Notes under the pieces: generated by a model
The model's database searches: none
The model's input: only the letters and a program-made list of their open reading frames with translations
What the model was told of the DNA's origin: nothing
Position numbers and translations under genes: made by a program
Origin: Candidatus Helarchaeota archaeon
GTDB taxonomy: Archaea; Asgardarchaeota; Lokiarchaeia; Helarchaeales; RDOG01
Assembly: GCA_029838215.1 (NCBI GenBank)
Contig: JALGVI010000060.1
Coordinates: 1-24,672 of the forward strand
Length of the DNA: 24,672 nt
Reading direction: 5' to 3'
In this document: positions 6,703 through 23,612 of the stretch, piece by piece
Position numbering within the stretch: the first letter of the stretch is position 1
How the letters are laid out: the number at the start of each line of letters is the position of its first letter

Positions 6703-7862
6703 TTATAAGATCGCCACGAATCCGAACGTGTAATAACTAATAAATAATGTTGGGTAGAAAATTAGATAGACAGGAAGCATGCACGCCGCACATATGATTG
6801 GATTGATGATGTTATCGGAAATTTGAAGTGGAGGGGAATAATAATCTGTCAGGAACATGACTGTTGCTCCTATTACTGATATTATCAACCCGAAAATTAA
6901 TAGTTTCAAATCAAAATGGCCAAATACCGTTGGCACTGTTGTCATTATCATGAACACGATAAAACTGAATCCGAAAGCTCCGATCACTCCACCTATGCAT
7001 CCTTCAACGGTCTTCCTGGAGTCGGGATGACTTGGGCGAATTTTTCGTTTTCCTGTCGTCACGCCAACGATTGTTGCCATTGCATCGCCTAATGCGGCGA
7101 CGGTGATTGCTACCATTGAAATAATTGGTGGAAATAGAACCGAAACGAATAATGCCCCCGTTATGAGAAATACGTGTGGACCGATTGCATATCGTTCCTT
7201 CTCTCGATATATATTTGCAAGGGGTTTCATGGGGTAGTAGCGGTACGCATGTACTCGAAGCAAATCTGTTAAAACAATGATGAAAAAGATTGCCACGAAT
7301 GCAAAGTTAACCATTACTTGACCTGCACGGGCAAAAATAATATCATGAAAGACCGTGAAAAAATTCGGCGGTATTGGATTAGAACCGATGTATTCAATGA
7401 AAATAGATAACAAACAATTATGCCATCAATTATGGTATGAAATAACTTCCTCGCCAATTCTAAATCAAGTTTATGAACCTTAGCCGTTTGAATGCTCTTT
7501 TCCTGAGCCTCCTTTGTTTCGTAATGCTTTAACTTATACTCAATTCCCACTACCAAAGCGATGAAGCAAAAGATCAGGAATGAAAAGATAAATAATGCTT
7601 GGATTAAGGGCTGAGGGATGGGAAGAAGCAAGAAATTCAAAAGTATGGCAATGGTATATGGAATGAAAAATGATATTATGAAAAGTGATAATCCCATGAC
7701 GAGAAAATAGCCACCAACTACGCACAACGCAATGCCGGTGATAAACGTTGAATATCCACTTTCACGATTAATTTTGAAAGATCGTTTCGTATCATGAATG
7801 AAAAAAACTCCCACCGCAGCGAGAAGAAGTCCCATAAAAATGGTGTACATACCAAAAGACAT
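6703..7862 (-). pseudogene. Frameshifted CTP-dependent isoprenoid-alcohol kinase (phytol/dolichol/DGK1-like, cytidylyltransferase family); real lesion or assembly indel
   Basis: ORF 7314..7862 holds the N-terminal ARKLFH motif. ORF 6703..7413 holds LRV, GDAMATIVG..GKRK and KTVEGCIGG. The two frames overlap by about 110 nt, and one added base joins them into a 386-aa membrane protein. Confidence 0.8.
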
Positions 7863-8027
7863 TTCTATCTCAATCCATTTGACGATTACTTTTCTCTCGT
7901 GTCGTTTCGGTCTAAATTAATGATGACTCGGATTATTTACTTTTCCCCGATTTCCTTAAAAATTCTTTTAGGTATTGAGATAATGAAATTAGTGAAAAAA
8001 AAAGTTTCATGACTTGGTGAAATAACA

Positions 8028-8243
8028 ATGGTAATCTTTCTCATTCCTGATTTTGTGGAGCTTGCAATTAGCATTTGTGGTTTTCTATCTGTATTGTTCT
8101 TTATATTAGCACTTGCCTCAAAGGAAGAGATTAAGAGAAGAAATTTCGCATTGTTATGTTTTGCGTCTGCCATGGGTATTTTAGTTACTTTTATAGTTTC
8201 GTTGATTATCGGAGCTCCAGTAATAATGGTTTATTATACTTGA
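8028..8243 (+). CDS. Small two-TM membrane protein (71 aa)
   Basis: Two hydrophobic helices joined by a charged loop (SKEEIKRRN). GGTGA at 8016-8020 lies 7 nt before the ATG. Confidence 0.65.
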   Translation: MVIFLIPDFVELAISICGFLSVLFFILALASKEEIKRRNFALLCFASAMGILVTFIVSLIIGAPVIMVYYT

Positions 8244-8360
8244 ATTTAACAAGAAATCCATGTTTAAGCATCAAAAACTCACGTCGTGCATTAAAGGACG
8301 TTGGTAGAAAATTTATCGAGTGTATTATATGTTTTTTCTTGAAGTTTTTCTAAGAAATGG

Positions 8361-8395
8361 TGAGATGTGAGTGGTCCCCTTCCCCACTCATCTCA
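8361..8395. other. Intergenic hairpin (12-bp stem, 2-nt bulge, 9-nt loop)
   Basis: TGAGA(TG)TGAGTGG-TCCCCTTCC-CCACTCATCTCA; the arms are reverse complements. GC-rich relative to the flanks. Confidence 0.55.
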
Positions 8396-8503
8396 ATCCT
8401 ATCGATACTTCCCGCCTTTTGACAGGTTTTCTGACCTCCTAACGAAATATGATTCGAGAAAAAAGAAATTCATTGGTCAATATTGTATATAAATGCCCAT
8501 AAA

Positions 8504-8532
8504 TTTATAAACTAATCGTAAACGATCGTAGT
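8504..8532 (+). promoter_or_regulatory. TATA box followed by an imperfect inverted repeat (candidate operator) upstream of the TrmB-like gene
   Basis: TTTATAAA at 8504-8511, then ACTA-ATCGT-AA-ACGAT-(CG)-TAGT at 8511-8532, ending 50 bp before the start at 8582. Confidence 0.35.
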
Positions 8533-8581
8533 TAATTGTTGTAAAATGTAAATTCCCAATTATGTTTTGTGAACACGGGTC

Positions 8582-11500
8582 GTGAAAATGGACGTTAAAA
8601 AGCTACGCATTCTTGGATTGAGTGAAAAAGAAGCCCAAGTATTGTATTTATTTCTCATGAATGTTGGAAAATCCATAGAAAAGAAAATATTAGTGAAGAG
8701 CTCCGATATTGGAGAAAATTATTTTGGGCAGATTCTTACTAAACTAGTCAGAGAGGGATTAATCCGAGCTGAAGGCAATAAACCTCGAAAATATAAATTC
8801 GAAGTGAGTTATCTTCAAAACTTTTTCGATCAGTTAATAGAAAATCATCATAAGACGCTTTCTGCAATAAATGATGCCCAAGATGAAACCATGCTTTTCA
8901 ATTATTTACCATTAAGTGATGAACATGTTTTTATCTTAAAGAGAATGATAAATTTGAAAAATAAGAAAAAAGGTTTTATTACTCTCCAAGAGATCGGAAA
9001 AAATGGAATGCCCGAATTCAAAGTTAGGAGAATTCTGAACGATCTAGTCAGTCGGAATTTTCTAATAAAGAAGAAGATAAAAAATCGCAATTATTTTTCC
9101 GTTGAGGATTTTTTCACGTTAAAAAACATGCAAAGAAAAAAGCTCGAACTCGAATTTTCAAACCAAGAGCAAATGATCGAAGAAATCATTCTTGAGGTAA
9201 TGAAAGAACAAAAATCAAGAGATCGAATAAAGAAAGACTGGGAACGTTTTCCAATAATCTATCGACTGAAAGAATTGACGAGAATATTGCCCCGTGAAAT
9301 ACGAAATGCCAAGAAACTTCTTGTAAAATTTAATATCGATTTTCTTCCCGATGATGTTAGGACAAGAATATATTTTGAATTGGGTTCATTATTGTTAGAC
9401 ACATATGAATTTAATAGAGACCTTGTCATTAATATCGTTCTTTATACAAGTCCTCCTTATGATTTTTTAATAGAAATGGACGAATTGACTCAAGAATTGT
9501 TTAAAAAATATGTAAAGGTTTTAAGACCCACTCAATTTGAAATCCGAGTTCAGAATGAGCCTGGACCGCATCCACTTTACGTTTTAATTGATGGAAAAAT
9601 AATTTTAATTCCTCTAGGAGATCGAATTGATCAATTCATGTTCCTTGAGGACAAGAGTTCCTTTAAATTATTTGAAGAAATATTTTATAAGGAATGGCAA
9701 AAATCGACTGATTTAAGAAAATATATTGCAGAGCTTCCCATTCCACCGGATTTTTTTTCATTACTCATAGACTCTCTTCGCGATTATCCTCCAATTGATA
9801 AAAAGCAAACCGATCTCCTATCACAAACACTTTCAACGATTAACGGTTTTAACCAAATGGAGAAGGTTTTAGTTAAAGAATTGCTCACGACGAAAGAGGT
9901 TTTAATAAAGATAGAATCTGCTGCAGGTGATGCCGCATCCACTTCTGACTTGGTCATCAGACTGGGGAACATTCTTCTTGCGATAATGAACAAGAATAAA
10001 GATATCAAAATAAAAATCGTGCAATATATCGAACCACCATATGAATACTTGGTTCGAATGGAAGAAAGAGCTCCTGAGGTTTTACGAAATATTATAAAAA
10101 CCATAAAGCCTGATCGGTTCGAGATTCGCATTCCAAATTCTCCCGGAACTTTTCCGTTTTACATAATTCTGGACTCAAGTACTACTATCTTTTCTTTGGG
10201 AGAAAATAGGGGCAAGATGTTAATAATTGAAGACCCTGCCACCTCAAGCTATGCTGAGCTTGCATTTCATAAAGAATGGGAAAATTCGATTGACGTGCGT
10301 GAATTGGTTGATGATCTTCCACTTCGAGGCGAGTTAAAAGATTTAGTTCATATTTCTCTAGCTCGGTATCCTCCAACAGCACTAAAAAAACTTCAAAAAT
10401 ATCAAGAGATCATGGGGCGTGCAAAATCCAAGCGCGTGTTCTTAGATCTTCTCAAAAATGTGCGATATAAGATTCAGCGCGTGGGCAATAATTTATTTGA
10501 TAACCGACTCGGACGAGATTATTATTATGACCTTCAGCAAATAATGATGGAAAAAGGAAGTGCGGTTAAATGGTATGGCCTTTTCCCTGAGAGTAGTGAT
10601 GATTTCTTCCGATGGAGTGAAAACATGAAAAATAGTAATTCGGACATACTTAATTTCGTGCTTGATTGGATTAAAACAAAGCGATTTCTACTGCGAACAT
10701 GTGAATACGTACTTGACTTGAACTTTTGTATTTTGGATGAGAGTCTTGTGGTTCTTTTCTATTATGATGATAAGAATAACCTATCAAAAATTGTTCTCGT
10801 TAACGAAGAAGAGATTGTTAAAAATTACCTGCATCTTTTCTCTGAATATTGGAAATCTAGCACTGATGCTCGAGAGTTATGGAGCATTAAATATCCTGAA
10901 TTAAAGAATCCCATCTTAAAATCTTACAAGTCTCTACCTTTCCAAATAACACTTCCTGAACATGGCGAAATTAGAATTTTTAAGAATAAGGATGGATATT
11001 TAGTTCAAGATCGGCTTGTCCGTGAAGCAAAAAAGCACATTTATACCATGCAAATCGTTCCAATGAAAGGGCACTTCTTTAGATTTGAGTATGATAACTC
11101 GGAATCACAAGTTCGTTATATCCAATCGCTCACGAATTTCTTGGAATTATACATGTCAATGAAGGCGATTCGGGAAGAAGAATTTACCATAAGAATCGTG
11201 CATTCATACTCTCCTGATTTCATATCATATTTAAAATTCATACCTACTAAAAGAGTAACTGCATTTTTTGAGAATCTATCAAAATTTTATCCTCAGGTTG
11301 ATTTGCGGTTTTTTCCTCCGAATAAATTTTCATTTCTAAACTTTACTTGTTATGACGATTACGTGACTCATCAGACTGGAGGATTTCAAAGTGCAATTCC
11401 CGGACGAATTCTTGTCATTCATGATGATCGAATTAGCGCGGCATATCAATCCTTGTTTTTCAATGGATGGGAAGAATCCATCGATTATAGAGTCTTGGCG

Positions 11501-11641
11501 GCGGCGGTTTTTAAAAATAATGCAAAAATCACCAAAATTATAAATAATCACATCGACGAATATCCCATTCAAGGGAAATACTCTAAAGAAGATTGTGAAT
11601 TTCTATTGAAAAATGGTGATCTCCCTCATCATAAACTCTAG
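8582..11641 (+). CDS. Giant TrmB-family regulator: two winged-HTH domains plus four tandem PLD-fold (TrmB sensor-like) repeats
   Basis: N-terminal LGLSEKEAQVLY...LVREGLI...GNKPRKY matches the TrmB HTH. A second wHTH spans aa ~110-175. Four ~190-205-aa repeats each end in W-x-x-S-[TI]-D-x-R. Start is GTG 8582 or ATG 8588. Confidence 0.87.
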   Translation: MKMDVKKLRILGLSEKEAQVLYLFLMNVGKSIEKKILVKSSDIGENYFGQILTKLVREGLIRAEGNKPRKYKFEVSYLQNFFDQLIENHHKTLSAINDAQDETMLFNYLPLSDEHVFILKRMINLKNKKKGFITLQEIGKNGMPEFKVRRILNDLVSRNFLIKKKIKNRNYFSVEDFFTLKNMQRKKLELEFSNQEQMIEEIILEVMKEQKSRDRIKKDWERFPIIYRLKELTRILPREIRNAKKLLVKFNIDFLPDDVRTRIYFELGSLLLDTYEFNRDLVINIVLYTSPPYDFLIEMDELTQELFKKYVKVLRPTQFEIRVQNEPGPHPLYVLIDGKIILIPLGDRIDQFMFLEDKSSFKLFEEIFYKEWQKSTDLRKYIAELPIPPDFFSLLIDSLRDYPPIDKKQTDLLSQTLSTINGFNQMEKVLVKELLTTKEVLIKIESAAGDAASTSDLVIRLGNILLAIMNKNKDIKIKIVQYIEPPYEYLVRMEERAPEVLRNIIKTIKPDRFEIRIPNSPGTFPFYIILDSSTTIFSLGENRGKMLIIEDPATSSYAELAFHKEWENSIDVRELVDDLPLRGELKDLVHISLARYPPTALKKLQKYQEIMGRAKSKRVFLDLLKNVRYKIQRVGNNLFDNRLGRDYYYDLQQIMMEKGSAVKWYGLFPESSDDFFRWSENMKNSNSDILNFVLDWIKTKRFLLRTCEYVLDLNFCILDESLVVLFYYDDKNNLSKIVLVNEEEIVKNYLHLFSEYWKSSTDARELWSIKYPELKNPILKSYKSLPFQITLPEHGEIRIFKNKDGYLVQDRLVREAKKHIYTMQIVPMKGHFFRFEYDNSESQVRYIQSLTNFLELYMSMKAIREEEFTIRIVHSYSPDFISYLKFIPTKRVTAFFENLSKFYPQVDLRFFPPNKFSFLNFTCYDDYVTHQTGGFQSAIPGRILVIHDDRISAAYQSLFFNGWEESIDYRVLAAAVFKNNAKITKIINNHIDEYPIQGKYSKEDCEFLLKNGDLPHHKL

Positions 11642-11753
11642 TAAAGTCAAGCTTTTTTTGAAGAAGATCTGCACAAATAATAAGTTATTAATCGATCTTA
11701 TTTCTAATAGGAACTCGTTGATTTTTTTACGTGATTCAGGTGCTTTACGTCGA

Positions 11754-13532
11754 GTGATAAAATTGGAAGATTTAGATGGGAAAATTACACCCAGAGATTA
11801 TCAAAGTAATGCTCGAGATCAGATTATCAATGCAATTGAAAATGAGAATAAGTTAGTTTCCCTCGTGCTCTTGCCTACAGGAATGGGTAAGACACTCGTG
11901 AGCACCATCACGATTGAAACATTGATCGAAGAAGGTCTAATATCTGATAACGATAAGGTACTGTTTTTGGTTCAAGATCGCAAGTTGAAGCACCAACTCT
12001 ATACAATGGCACGGGATTATGGGTTAGATCGTCACGGGCACCTTTTTCTTCTTGATGACAATAGAAGCATTCCTGCACGAATCACGCGGCAACATGCGGC
12101 ACTGGCGAAAATCATTTTTGCAACACCCGTTCTTCTCATGAATTCGTTGATAGCAAAACGACCGGGTCAAGAACGAATTGAACGAAAAACACTGCAGGAC
12201 ATTAAAGTCGTGGTAATCGATGAAATTTTGGACATTTTTGCACAGAGTTACGGGCAGAAGCGTGATCGTCAAGAAACAATCCAATACATTGAAAAACGTT
12301 TCAAAAAGAAATTATCTGAAATTATTGAAGACGTTAAAAAACAGTATCCTGAATTCGACTTGAATGAACGAAAAATAGAGGCTTATTTAATTAATGAATT
12401 TGCACCTAAAGAGTACCGCTTGAATAAAAAATTCGAACCGATTTTAAACTTGCTCAATTTATTGAACCCCGATAATCAAAAAATCGTGATTGGACTTACG
12501 GCATCGCTGTCACAAGATATTAAAATCGACTTGTTAGAGAAATATTTCGGGGGACCTACTCAAGTCGCAAAGATCTATCCTGAAGGCGATGATTTCGAGA
12601 ATTTCCGACCGGAAATTAAATTGAAAAAGATACGTGTTTTCGATGACTGGGTTTCTGAAGTCGATCATCGAATAAAGGAAATGAAAGGTGGCACACTAAA
12701 AATCATTAATTCGGCCTATACGTTATTAACTGGTAAGTCCCGCTTGCCGTCCGAACGCATCTTATTATTCACGAACGACGTGATCAATAACAAGAAATTG
12801 CAAAAAAAACTCGAAGAAAAGTTTTTGGAAAGGAATCCCAAGGGAGATGCCCAAGAATTCTTGAATCGCCTGATTACCCATGCAAGTGCATTTTTATTAT
12901 TGACCGTTGCCAGGCAAACGTTGCTGGAAAATACATTTCCATCATTCATTCGATTCATGCGAAACATCAAGAATGGATTTCTCACGAATAATTCCTCTTT
13001 CATAAAAATCCTTTCTCAAATCGATGACCGAGTGGCGGAACTGAAGAAGAAAGAGAAAAAACTCGGAAAAAAAGAAGAACGTCTCATTTTTTGGCTAGAA
13101 AAATTTGTTAAAGAAGGCAAGAAAGCATTGGTGTTATGCCGCTTCGTGAACATGACCAAATATCTCCACCAGATTGCCACGGAAATAGGAATTGTAAGCT
13201 CTTTTGTTCACGGTAAAATGGCAGGGAAAGTGCAACATGAGCAAATCATGAAGTTCAAGAAAGGAAATGCCCAGGTGCTTTTTGCGTCAGAACGTTTGAT
13301 TGAAAAGGGTACTGACTTGCCTGAAGCTGATGTTGCCGTTTATTACGGAACAACAGTTTCATTGGAAAGGTATGAACAGTCCTTGGGAAGAATCAGGAGC
13401 AATGTAAAAAACGTTAAGACTTCTTATACAATAAGCTATAATCAAACCGTAGAAGATGAAAAATCTCTAAAACGTGATGCCCTATTTCTCAAGATGATGG
13501 CAAAAGGAAAACTTCAAGTCCTTGAAGAATAA
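11754..13532 (+). CDS. Divergent SF2 helicase, Hef/FANCM/Mph1-like, without a C-terminal ERCC4 nuclease
   Basis: Q motif PRDYQ, motif I LPTGMGKT, FATP, motif II DEIL, motif III GLTAS, HGKM, motif V EKGTDLPEAD, motif VI QSLGRIRS. In-frame GTG 11754 with AGGTG about 11 nt upstream is preferred over track start 11613, which overlaps the previous gene. Confidence 0.87.
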   Translation: MIKLEDLDGKITPRDYQSNARDQIINAIENENKLVSLVLLPTGMGKTLVSTITIETLIEEGLISDNDKVLFLVQDRKLKHQLYTMARDYGLDRHGHLFLLDDNRSIPARITRQHAALAKIIFATPVLLMNSLIAKRPGQERIERKTLQDIKVVVIDEILDIFAQSYGQKRDRQETIQYIEKRFKKKLSEIIEDVKKQYPEFDLNERKIEAYLINEFAPKEYRLNKKFEPILNLLNLLNPDNQKIVIGLTASLSQDIKIDLLEKYFGGPTQVAKIYPEGDDFENFRPEIKLKKIRVFDDWVSEVDHRIKEMKGGTLKIINSAYTLLTGKSRLPSERILLFTNDVINNKKLQKKLEEKFLERNPKGDAQEFLNRLITHASAFLLLTVARQTLLENTFPSFIRFMRNIKNGFLTNNSSFIKILSQIDDRVAELKKKEKKLGKKEERLIFWLEKFVKEGKKALVLCRFVNMTKYLHQIATEIGIVSSFVHGKMAGKVQHEQIMKFKKGNAQVLFASERLIEKGTDLPEADVAVYYGTTVSLERYEQSLGRIRSNVKNVKTSYTISYNQTVEDEKSLKRDALFLKMMAKGKLQVLEE

Positions 13533-13542
13533 AAATTAGATA

Positions 13543-14274
13543 TTAAATTTTTGCGATGTAAGCACTGATCTCTTGTGGTAAGAGACTTTTAAATTCCGGT
13601 TCCTTCGTGCTGATGGTTGCAATCCCTACTTTTTGTTCGTTGAATTCTTCTGAGATCACTTCTTTAAGAAGCTTCAATCCAAGAATGATGGCTTCATTTA
13701 AAGTCATGCTAGGACTATAACCATTCTGTTCTTTTTGTAATTGCTCTGCTACTTGTTCTGCTCCCGCTCCAATGGCTTGGGCTTGATATCCTGAAAATGC
13801 TCCCGAAGGTGCGGTCATGAATAATTGAGGTCCCGATACATCAATGCCTGCAATCAAAAAAGCAACACCAAAAGGTCGGACACCAGCATTGTGCGTGTAA
13901 ACTTGTTTCAAATCACAAATCTTTTTCACGAGAATCTTGATATCGATCGCTTCATCATAACTCATGCGATTAATCTGGGCTTGAACCCGGGCATGATCTA
14001 TAAGAACCATTGCGTCTGCAGTCAAACCTGCAATGGTTGCTCCTACGTGCTTGTCAATCAAGAATATTTTTTGCACGGTTTCTGGGACCTGTAACTTTGA
14101 AATGCGTTTTTCGGCTAATAATACTACACCCTCATTGGTGCGAATGCCAATGGCGGTCGTTCCCTGTTCAATGGCTTTCGTAGCGTATTCAACTTGATAA
14201 AGCCTACCTGCAGGACTGAAAGTCGTGAGTCCCATATCGTAACCTGCTTCACCTGTTTCTCCGTTTCCAAACAA
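13543..14274 (-). CDS. psmA: 20S proteasome alpha subunit
   Basis: GYDMGLTTFSPAGRLYQVEYA signature, GTTAIG, KIFLIDKHVG, RPFGVAFLIAG, AIGAG. TTG start lies 6 nt after GGTGA (14285-14281). Confidence 0.97.
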   Translation of the reverse strand: MFGNGETGEAGYDMGLTTFSPAGRLYQVEYATKAIEQGTTAIGIRTNEGVVLLAEKRISKLQVPETVQKIFLIDKHVGATIAGLTADAMVLIDHARVQAQINRMSYDEAIDIKILVKKICDLKQVYTHNAGVRPFGVAFLIAGIDVSGPQLFMTAPSGAFSGYQAQAIGAGAEQVAEQLQKEQNGYSPSMTLNEAIILGLKLLKEVISEEFNEQKVGIATISTKEPEFKSLLPQEISAYIAKI

Positions 14275-22071: not shown

Positions 22072-22080
22072 CCCCTCCTT
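22072..22080 (-). promoter_or_regulatory. Shine-Dalgarno AAGGAGGGG overlapping the GTPase stop codon
   Basis: Minus strand reads GGT TAA GGAGGGG AAAGCTG TTG ATG. Confidence 0.7.
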
Positions 22081-22615
22081 AACCACCTCTACTACTCCTC
22101 ATTAAAAATTCGACCAGTGTTTTAAATGCTTCATCTACATTTTCGCCCGTTGCTGCTGAAGTTTCCGAAAAACACACGATATTTTCGTGTAACTTTGCAA
22201 ACTGCTCCCCATATATTCGTGTTACCAGTCTTTGATCTACAAGGTCAACCTTATTTCCGAGTAGTGCAATTTTTGTTTTTCTTGTCGTGCGTTGTAAGGC
22301 ATCAGTAATCCAAATCGACAGGTTTTCAAAGGTTCGAGGGCGTGTTATGTCATAAACAAGGATTATGCCCTCGGCGTCCCTATAATACAAATGGCGATAA
22401 GAAGTAAACTTACTCTGCCCTGCAATATCCCAAATTATCAATTTAACGCTTTCATTTTCCGTTTCCACGACTTTCGTCATGAACTGCACGCCGATAGTAC
22501 TCTTATAATCCGGTTCAAATGTATTATCGATAAAACGATGAAGCAAACTCGTCTTTCCAACACCGCCATCTCCTAAGAGTAGGATTTTAAAGACGTACTG
22601 GTCGCGTGGTGTCAT
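22079..22615 (-). CDS. Rab-like small GTPase A (178 aa)
   Basis: G1 GDGGVGKTS, G2 STIGVQF, G3 WDIAGQ, YYRDA, LVYDIT, G4 NKVD, G5 ETSA. ATG 22615 follows GAGGAG; the extra 44 N-terminal codons in the track look non-coding. Confidence 0.95.
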   Translation of the reverse strand: MTPRDQYVFKILLLGDGGVGKTSLLHRFIDNTFEPDYKSTIGVQFMTKVVETENESVKLIIWDIAGQSKFTSYRHLYYRDAEGIILVYDITRPRTFENLSIWITDALQRTTRKTKIALLGNKVDLVDQRLVTRIYGEQFAKLHENIVCFSETSAATGENVDEAFKTLVEFLMRSSRGG

Positions 22616-23081
22616 TCGCCTTTCTCCTCGAACTCGAATCGAAATCTGTTTAATTACTTTCAAGTATCCATGTAAAAGATAATCATATAAATGTTTAGCG
22701 GCAAAACTTGCTATAACATGACAGTATGGAAATATATTACTACTCAAATACCATCAATTTGTAAAAACCATTGAATTTTATTTTATCAATTAATGCATGT
22801 TAATTTTAAGTTCATTGAGAAAAGACATTCTAAAAGCCATTTCTGCTCGAAACATTGTTTATATCTCTTTTTTTTATCTTTTTTTGTACTAAATCATTTA
22901 GAAAACTCATGAAAACAAGCTGAAAGAAGTCTTGCTCGAAGAGCTTTCACAAAATTTTTCTTTAGCTTGAAGTTCATCAGAGAGATAAAATTATAAATTT
23001 TGACTTACAATTGACTATAAACAACATACGACTTAAATGCAAAAATTTCTTCGTAAAATTTGATGATTTCGAGGGCTTTGA

Positions 23082-23612
23082 ATGGGCAAAAAGAAAATTT
23101 TCTTAAAAGCCGTTTTGATTGGCGATGGAGGCGTTGGAAAGACTTCCTTGCTTATAAGACATGTTGACAAGAAATTCAGTACTGATTACAAGCCGACTCT
23201 TGGCTTTGATATCAGCCTGAAGACCATAACAGTTCAGGAGAACCAAGTAGAACTCTTGATTTGGGATGTTGCAGGGCAATCCATATTCAAGGAGATTCGG
23301 CAGAGTTACCTTGAAGGGAGTCATTGTGCCTTGCTGGTTTATGACATAACAAATCACGAGACGTTCGATAATACTGGTTTATGGTTAAAAGAACTGAAGA
23401 AATATGCTGGGGAAGTACCCTTTATTTTAGTCGGTAATAAGATCGATCTTCAGGATAAACGCCTCATTTCGGCTGAAAGTGGAGAGGAAAAAGCAAAAGA
23501 ATTAGGTGCTGTTGGATTCTTTGAAACATCTGCTAAAAATGGCGATAAAGTAGATGATGCGTTCGAATTACTAACTAGTAAGAGTGTTCAATTTTTTCAA
23601 TCACAAACATGA
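23082..23612 (+). CDS. Rab-like small GTPase B (176 aa)
   Basis: G1 GDGGVGKTS, G2 PTLGFDI, G3 WDVAGQ, LVYDIT, G4 NKID, G5 ETSAK. Confidence 0.95.
   Translation: MGKKKIFLKAVLIGDGGVGKTSLLIRHVDKKFSTDYKPTLGFDISLKTITVQENQVELLIWDVAGQSIFKEIRQSYLEGSHCALLVYDITNHETFDNTGLWLKELKKYAGEVPFILVGNKIDLQDKRLISAESGEEKAKELGAVGFFETSAKNGDKVDDAFELLTSKSVQFFQSQT

Follow-up and report, generated by a model that had tools for sequence, protein, structure and literature searches.

A TrmB-like protein of Candidatus Helarchaeota with two winged helices and four catalytically dead PLD-like modules

The archaeal regulators TrmB and TrmBL1 bear their sugar-binding residues (such as G320 and E326) on an additional C-terminal subdomain (PMC4158304). 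TrmBL2 is without that part of about 70 amino acids (aa) and has no effector domain (PMC4158304). It consists of a winged helix-turn-helix (wHTH), a helix for dimerisation and one C-terminal domain, has no sugar domain and forms a tetramer (PMC4877046). The dimerisation helix sets the paired heads in adjacent major grooves, and tetramers and filaments are built (PMC4877046). TrmBL2 acts as a chromatin protein and as a repressor (PMC4877046; PMC4158304). The gene described here is found at 8582..11641 (+) in a stretch of 24,672 nucleotides (nt) from a Candidatus Helarchaeota archaeon (contig JALGVI010000060.1), the whole of which is called the window. It is shown to belong to the TrmB/TrmBL2 superfamily, with a wHTH-wHTH head followed by four modules of about 190 aa with the phospholipase D (PLD) fold. 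The layout proposed in an initial annotation of the window, a TrmB-type protein with a pair of wHTHs and four PLD-fold repeats that are catalytically dead, was borne out by Pfam, by hhalign and by a structural model of repeat 2.

The closest described protein is TrmBL2 of the Thermococcales (PF0496/TK0471; structures 5bqt, 5box, 5bpd and 5bpi), which in 264 aa has one head and one PLD-like domain and is a tetramer, whereas a single chain of the window protein combines two heads with four PLD-like domains. The sequence similarity between them is marginal. The domain types match, but the architecture of one extended wHTH (ewHTH), a helix and one PLD domain in about 264 aa is not that of the window protein. 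Chromatin proteins of the TrmBL2 type also coat DNA non-specifically. The distribution also differs: TrmBL2 is present in all Thermococcales and the window family in a few Helarchaeota. The sugar-binding C-terminal subdomain that distinguishes TrmB and TrmBL1 (2f5t, 3qph) is absent from the window protein. Pfam Regulator_TrmB (PF11495) had no match to the whole protein or to any segment with E up to 10, and because the repeats abut and only a tail of 23 aa follows them there is no room for such a subdomain. In lacking it the window protein is TrmBL2-like.

Winged helices and PLD-like repeats

The features of the gene and the protein, with repeat boundaries taken from a common 194-position repeat model, are as follows.

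8582..11641, + strand: TrmB-like protein gene, an uninterrupted open reading frame (ORF) of 1019 aa (GTG) or 1017 aa (ATG 8588)
8603..8797, + strand: wHTH 1, TrmB type, aa 8-72, by Pfam PF01978
8900..9154, + strand: wHTH 2, aa 107-191, by hhalign to head 1
9227..9793, + strand: PLD-like repeat 1, aa 216-404, HKD position HPLYVLID
9809..10375, + strand: PLD-like repeat 2, aa 410-598, HKD position FPFYIILD, structure-modelled
10379..10942, + strand: PLD-like repeat 3, aa 600-787, HKD position DLNFCILD
10946..11569, + strand: PLD-like repeat 4, aa 789-996, HKD position FLNFTCYD
11570..11638, + strand: C-terminal tail of 23 aa, aa 997-1019, by family alignments

The four repeats are homologous to each other. 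A BLASTP comparison of repeats 1 and 2 gave an E of 8.6e-37 with 30% identity across 189 aa, and repeat 2 matched repeat 3 (1e-5) and repeat 4 (2.5e-5). The alignments of each repeat type, drawn from 12 family members, matched in all pairs with hhalign (92.6-98.8% probability, E 5e-17 to 4.5e-7, 116-165 columns). All four window repeats were also recovered by hidden Markov models (HMMs) built from the repeats of other proteins with the window protein excluded; the model of the repeat 4 sequences, for example, gave 127.5 bits with window repeat 4. Chance resemblance of the repeats is ruled out by these BLASTP, hhalign and window-excluded HMM results. The eight motifs listed in the initial annotation, at the HKD site (aa 330, 524, 712 and 918) and at the repeat ends (aa 370, 564, 755 and 961), are all in place, as are the PPYD/PPYE, FEIR and RDYPP/ARYPP motifs. 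The distances given between the repeats (194, 188 and 206 aa) are correct. Repeats 1 and 2 had been called the most alike, which agrees with their 30% identity against 12-20% for the remaining pairs. Repeat 4 has an insert following the first strand.

The PLD fold of repeat 2 is shown by a predicted structure. The repeat was folded with an alignment (A4) of 18 repeats, which came from the window, Candidatus Helarchaeota LW55_61 and a short contig labelled Promethearchaeota; the model had a predicted local distance difference test (pLDDT) of 91.0 and a predicted template modelling score (pTM) of 0.88. In a Foldseek search against the Protein Data Bank (PDB) the model had 99 matches at E <= 1e-3, with TrmBL2 (5bpd, E 4e-7) at the top and FAM83, Nuc, bacterial PLDs, Zucchini and TrmB after it. 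TrmBL2 was also best in a further structural ranking, followed by FAM83B (12.4), NucT (12.3) and TrmB 2f5t (12.2), and lower down by Zucchini, Nuc, TrmB 3qph (11.6), F13, PLD3 and SauUSI; all 50 entries listed in this ranking are PLD-fold proteins. The profile of the 18 repeats reached the same group when run against PDB sequences, matching poxvirus F13 and TrmBL2 (E 1.2e-3, positions 11-163 of 192; MitoPLD 0.048). TrmBL2 and the PLD enzymes were reached solely by this pooled profile and not by type-specific ones: no meaningful match to PDB sequences came from the profiles built on 6 sequences of repeat 3 and on 4 of repeat 4. In 161 genomes of the same class, the only proteins beyond the family that the pooled profile matched include one of 273 aa with a strong TrmB wHTH and a true PLDc_2 enzyme of 498 aa.

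Pfam families were matched by repeat 3. Window repeat 3 scored 25.8 bits on DUF6879 (cut-off 23.9, aa 714-765) and had an E of 0.022 on FilR1_middle, and the orthologous repeat 3 of the homologue P0003 scored 54 bits on DUF7436 (cut-off 34.2). An ordinary Helarchaeota protein of 298 aa has DUF7436 behind its TrmB wHTH, and in a PLD enzyme of 517 aa DUF7436 overlaps PLDc_2 as well as Regulator_TrmB. From the co-location of DUF7436, Regulator_TrmB and PLDc_2, DUF7436 appears to be a TrmB-type PLD-like domain and not an unknown fold. Regulator_TrmB and DUF7436 both lie on the PLDc_2 stretch of true two-domain PLD enzymes from Asgard genomes (loci L026 787-2283 and L035 712-2265). A scan of the window protein against NCBIfam matched no family.

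The catalytic site has been lost from the repeats. The invariant Asp was taken as the D of HxK(x)4D, following the alignment of the 18-repeat profile with F13. In 36 repeats of the family Asp is present in 35, the catalytic Lys in none and His in four. The earlier observation that Asp is kept in all four window repeats and Lys in none is correct, and the pattern extends through the family. To judge from these positions the modules are pseudoenzymes, as is the same domain in TrmB and TrmBL2. Phosphodiesterase chemistry is not expected because Lys is gone from all repeats and His from nearly all. The HKD enzymes (Nuc 1byr, NucT 6ehi, Zucchini/MitoPLD 4ggj, F13 9fhk and PLD3/4) differ from the window repeats in this loss of the catalytic Lys and His. 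An end motif W-x-x-S-x-D-x-R (aa 370-379, 564-573, 755-764 and 961-970) is conserved after the PLD C-terminal helix, and its Asp and Arg are almost invariant across the 18 repeats.

The first head is recognised by the Pfam family TrmB (PF01978), with 27.6 bits on aa 8-72 against a cut-off of 25.6. The same family gave 25.1 bits, just below the cut-off, in the 850-aa homologue P0007, and scored lower still in the members of the LW55_61 group. The second head (aa 107-191) scored 25.1 bits on the DnaD_N wHTH, which is under the cut-off of that family. The family alignments of head 1 and head 2 matched each other with hhalign (95% probability, E 3.5e-8, 74 columns), and the heads are therefore two mutually homologous winged helices. 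R149, L155 and K165 of wHTH 2 are invariant across the family alignment, and Y47 is an aromatic residue within the recognition-helix region of head 1. The head segments are basic, with an isoelectric point of 9.5 for aa 1-99 and 9.7 for the second head; repeats 1 and 2 are acidic (5.2-5.4). Helices at aa 75-93 and 175-208 are predicted solely in a full-length model with a pLDDT of 33.

The reading frame is stop-free from GTG 8582, which gives 1019 aa, to the stop codon at 11639-11641. An identical database protein of 1017 aa begins at ATG 8588 (MDVKKL...). Because of this database copy, and because the N-termini of the homologues are in register with MDVKKL, ATG 8588 is the likelier start. At the other end of the protein the tail (aa 997-1019) is conserved in homologues with three and four repeats, and Y1000 and P1015 are invariant in the alignments.

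Family members and evolution of the repeats

By the searches made, the proteins with this layout are a small, unannotated family confined to a few Helarchaeota. When 1.84 billion cluster representatives were searched exhaustively with HMMER, only 11 clusters came up. All named members are annotated as 'hypothetical protein' and come from Candidatus Helarchaeota or Promethearchaeota metagenome-assembled genomes (MAGs). The nearest relative, P0007, is 38% identical and has two heads and three repeats, without repeat 1. The other relatives have 23-27% identity and two heads plus 2, 3 or 4 repeats, and the repeat-3 type is present in every member. The family profile found a member in three of 400 Asgard genomes, and one more genome had a partial match that is weak (E 2.7e-6). 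No family member was present in five further genomes of the same order. A search with the family alignment gave two loci in genome contigs and none in JGI metagenome contigs. When 5.8 billion proteins were searched through a word index, the full protein matched nothing but itself, and the repeat profile run in the same way against longer proteins found three family members only; the word filter makes both of these negatives weak. The architecture was not recognised in the initial annotation. No characterised family has this layout, and no paper describing it was found in the literature. It is not unique, as about a dozen Helarchaeota proteins share two heads with 2-4 repeats.

Several paralogues are found in Candidatus Helarchaeota LW55_61 (JAHPZH010000001), where genes of 1019, 839 and 596 aa stand in tandem and a 635-aa copy is found elsewhere. 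These four proteins belong to the same family as the window protein, to which they are 21-25% identical, and their repeats 2, 3 and 4 are orthologous to those of the window. They differ in two respects: their first repeat is a separate type, while window repeat 1 groups with repeat 2, and they include a tandem array, while the gene is single copy in the window genome. The array (L005 10551-18130) is co-oriented, and its 1019, 839 and 596 aa correspond to 4, 3 and 2 PLD-like repeats. Downstream of it are a 220-aa wHTH protein and a 417-aa protein without Pfam match. In another Helarchaeota MAG the genes of the homologues P0011 and P0014 lie side by side. Two further members, 71% identical to LW55_61 genes, are found on the 2651-nt contig JBHLNT010000356, where the second loses its frame near the contig end. 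Because the genome to which it is assigned belongs to a different family (f4) of the class, this contig may be a mis-binned Helarchaeota fragment.

The tree of the 36 repeats had separate clades for repeat 3 (100/100), repeat 4 (100/98) and the first repeats of the LW55_61 group (100/99). Window repeat 1 was placed inside the repeat-2 clade (95/94), together with window repeat 2 and repeat 2 of P0007. The stepwise duplication suggested earlier is supported by this nesting. Window repeat 1 also scored 57.7 bits with a window-excluded HMM of repeat 2 against 20.8 bits with the repeat-1 HMM of the other group. In the approximately unbiased (AU) test a single origin of all first repeats was rejected only marginally (p 0.047). 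A lineage-specific duplication of repeat 2 probably gave rise to window repeat 1, and, because of the tree placement, the HMM scores and the marginal AU rejection, the fourth module was probably gained twice. The core shared by the family, as seen in the alignments, is head-head-repeat 2-repeat 3.

Genes surrounding the TrmB-like gene

The gene downstream of the TrmB-like gene encodes a helicase of superfamily 2 (SF2).

11613..13532, + strand: SF2 helicase gene, Pfam ResIII, DEAD and Helicase_C

Up to 29 nt at the 3' end of the TrmB-like gene are shared with the helicase gene, and in the window the two are probably co-transcribed. In LW55_61 a distance of about 350 kb separates the orthologue of the helicase (41-44% identity) from the TrmB-like array. 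No TrmB-like gene adjoins this orthologue, and the gene upstream of it is on the opposite strand. The array itself has unrelated neighbours, which encode a wHTH protein, GlmS and phosphoglucomutase, with no helicase adjoining. A conserved two-gene system is unsupported because the LW55_61 orthologue is unlinked. PADLOC had no match for the window protein or the homologues P0003 and P0005, and for the helicase only generic helicase-domain matches.

Upstream, a gap of 720 nt (7863-8581) separates the TrmB-like gene from a divergent membrane-protein gene (7314..7862, -). The gap contains a hairpin with a 14-nt stem (8361-8395) and AT-rich palindromes at 8485-8516, about 75 nt upstream of ATG 8588, which are a possible TATA/B recognition element (BRE) region or operator. 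A 71-aa ORF at 8028..8243 resembles a small membrane protein with two helices. The window was also scanned for Rfam families and tRNAs, with no match. A proteasome alpha subunit gene is located at 13543..14274 and two Ras/Rab-like small GTPase genes at 22079-23612 (Pfam Ras 178 and 184 bits), and the window has about 36% GC. The two Ras-family GTPases and the proteasome alpha subunit identify the window as Asgard archaeal.

Proposed role of the protein

The protein is rather more probably than otherwise a single-chain, TrmBL2-like DNA binder or regulator in which the inert PLD modules are structural. This is proposed because TrmBL2 works with paired heads and in tetramers and because the core of the window family has the content of a covalent dimer. 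The two basic winged helices of one chain would bind DNA in the same way as heads that are paired in a TrmB or TrmBL2 dimer and read adjacent major grooves. The PLD-like modules would provide rigid surfaces for self-association or partner binding, which in the TrmBL2 tetramer are supplied by separate subunits. The core of two heads and repeats 2 and 3 would then equal, in domain content, a TrmBL2-like dimer whose subunits are joined covalently, with repeats 1 and 4 as add-ons that differ among paralogues. The likely role would be that of a Helarchaeota-specific transcription regulator or nucleoid-associated protein. Of the two functions offered in the initial annotation, a single-chain pseudo-oligomer is plausible for the shared core only. 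Paralogues with three repeats exist, which shows that pairing inside a single chain cannot take in every module; the domain order is also non-alternating.

Several points weigh against the proposal of a single-chain DNA binder. The order head-head-PLD-PLD is not that of a plain fusion of two TrmBL2 genes. The PLD fold is assigned to repeats 1, 3 and 4 through homology over most of their length and not through models of their own, and the arrangement of heads and modules is not given by the full-length AlphaFold2 model, which was made without an alignment and has a pLDDT of 33. The S-x-D-x-R part of the conserved end motif is without counterpart in the TrmBL2 alignment.

The other function offered was that of a multi-input sensor, in which each PLD-like repeat would bind a different small ligand and the inputs would be integrated to control DNA binding. 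The repeat types are old and each forms its own clade (repeats 3 and 4 at 100%), which would fit distinct specificities. The sugar contacts of TrmB (G320, E326) are however located in the C-terminal part, and TrmBL2, which is without it, has no effector domain (PMC4158304). With no such subdomain in the window protein, Regulator_TrmB unmatched, the repeats abutting and the ligand-less TrmBL2 as the best structural match, no evidence for ligand sensing was found and the sensor is considered unlikely. It is still less probable that the protein is a scaffold not acting on DNA, with dead PLD modules that dock proteins as FAM83 DUF1669 does and winged helices that contact protein or RNA. FAM83 DUF1669 (4urj, 5lzk) is likewise a pseudo-PLD, but it is eukaryotic, has a single domain and no DNA-binding head, and resembles the window repeats at the level of fold only (8-13% identity). 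The TrmB wHTH above the Pfam cut-off, the aromatic Y47 and the basic character of both heads also argue against a scaffold. An active PLD nuclease forming a two-gene restriction or defence unit with the overlapping helicase, in the manner of SauUSI or NgoAVII, is highly improbable. Lys is missing from every one of the 36 HKD positions and His from all but four, PADLOC had no match for the window protein or its homologues, and in LW55_61 the helicase orthologue is about 350 kb from the TrmB-like genes with none beside the array. An active nuclease or a defence pair with the helicase is rejected on account of the dead HKD motif and the lack of conserved linkage.

The TrmB family provides archaea with major regulators, and its member TrmBL2 is a chromatin protein. 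In the window protein, parts that are normally joined by oligomerisation would be encoded in one chain, in a lineage near the origin of eukaryotes. The family illustrates how a pseudoenzyme domain can be repeatedly expanded through internal duplication. The paralogues step from 2 through 3 to 4 modules, a natural series that could reveal the part of the dead PLD domain in DNA binding, spacing and cooperativity. A wider and doubtful idea is that a TrmBL2-like ancestor may have given rise in Helarchaeota to a new class of nucleoid-associated protein, modular and single-chain, with two DNA-reading heads and a variable row of 2-4 inert PLD modules that sets the stacking or bridging on DNA. If true, the ladders of 4-, 3- and 2-module paralogues would give chromatin fibres or repressor assemblies of differing geometry.

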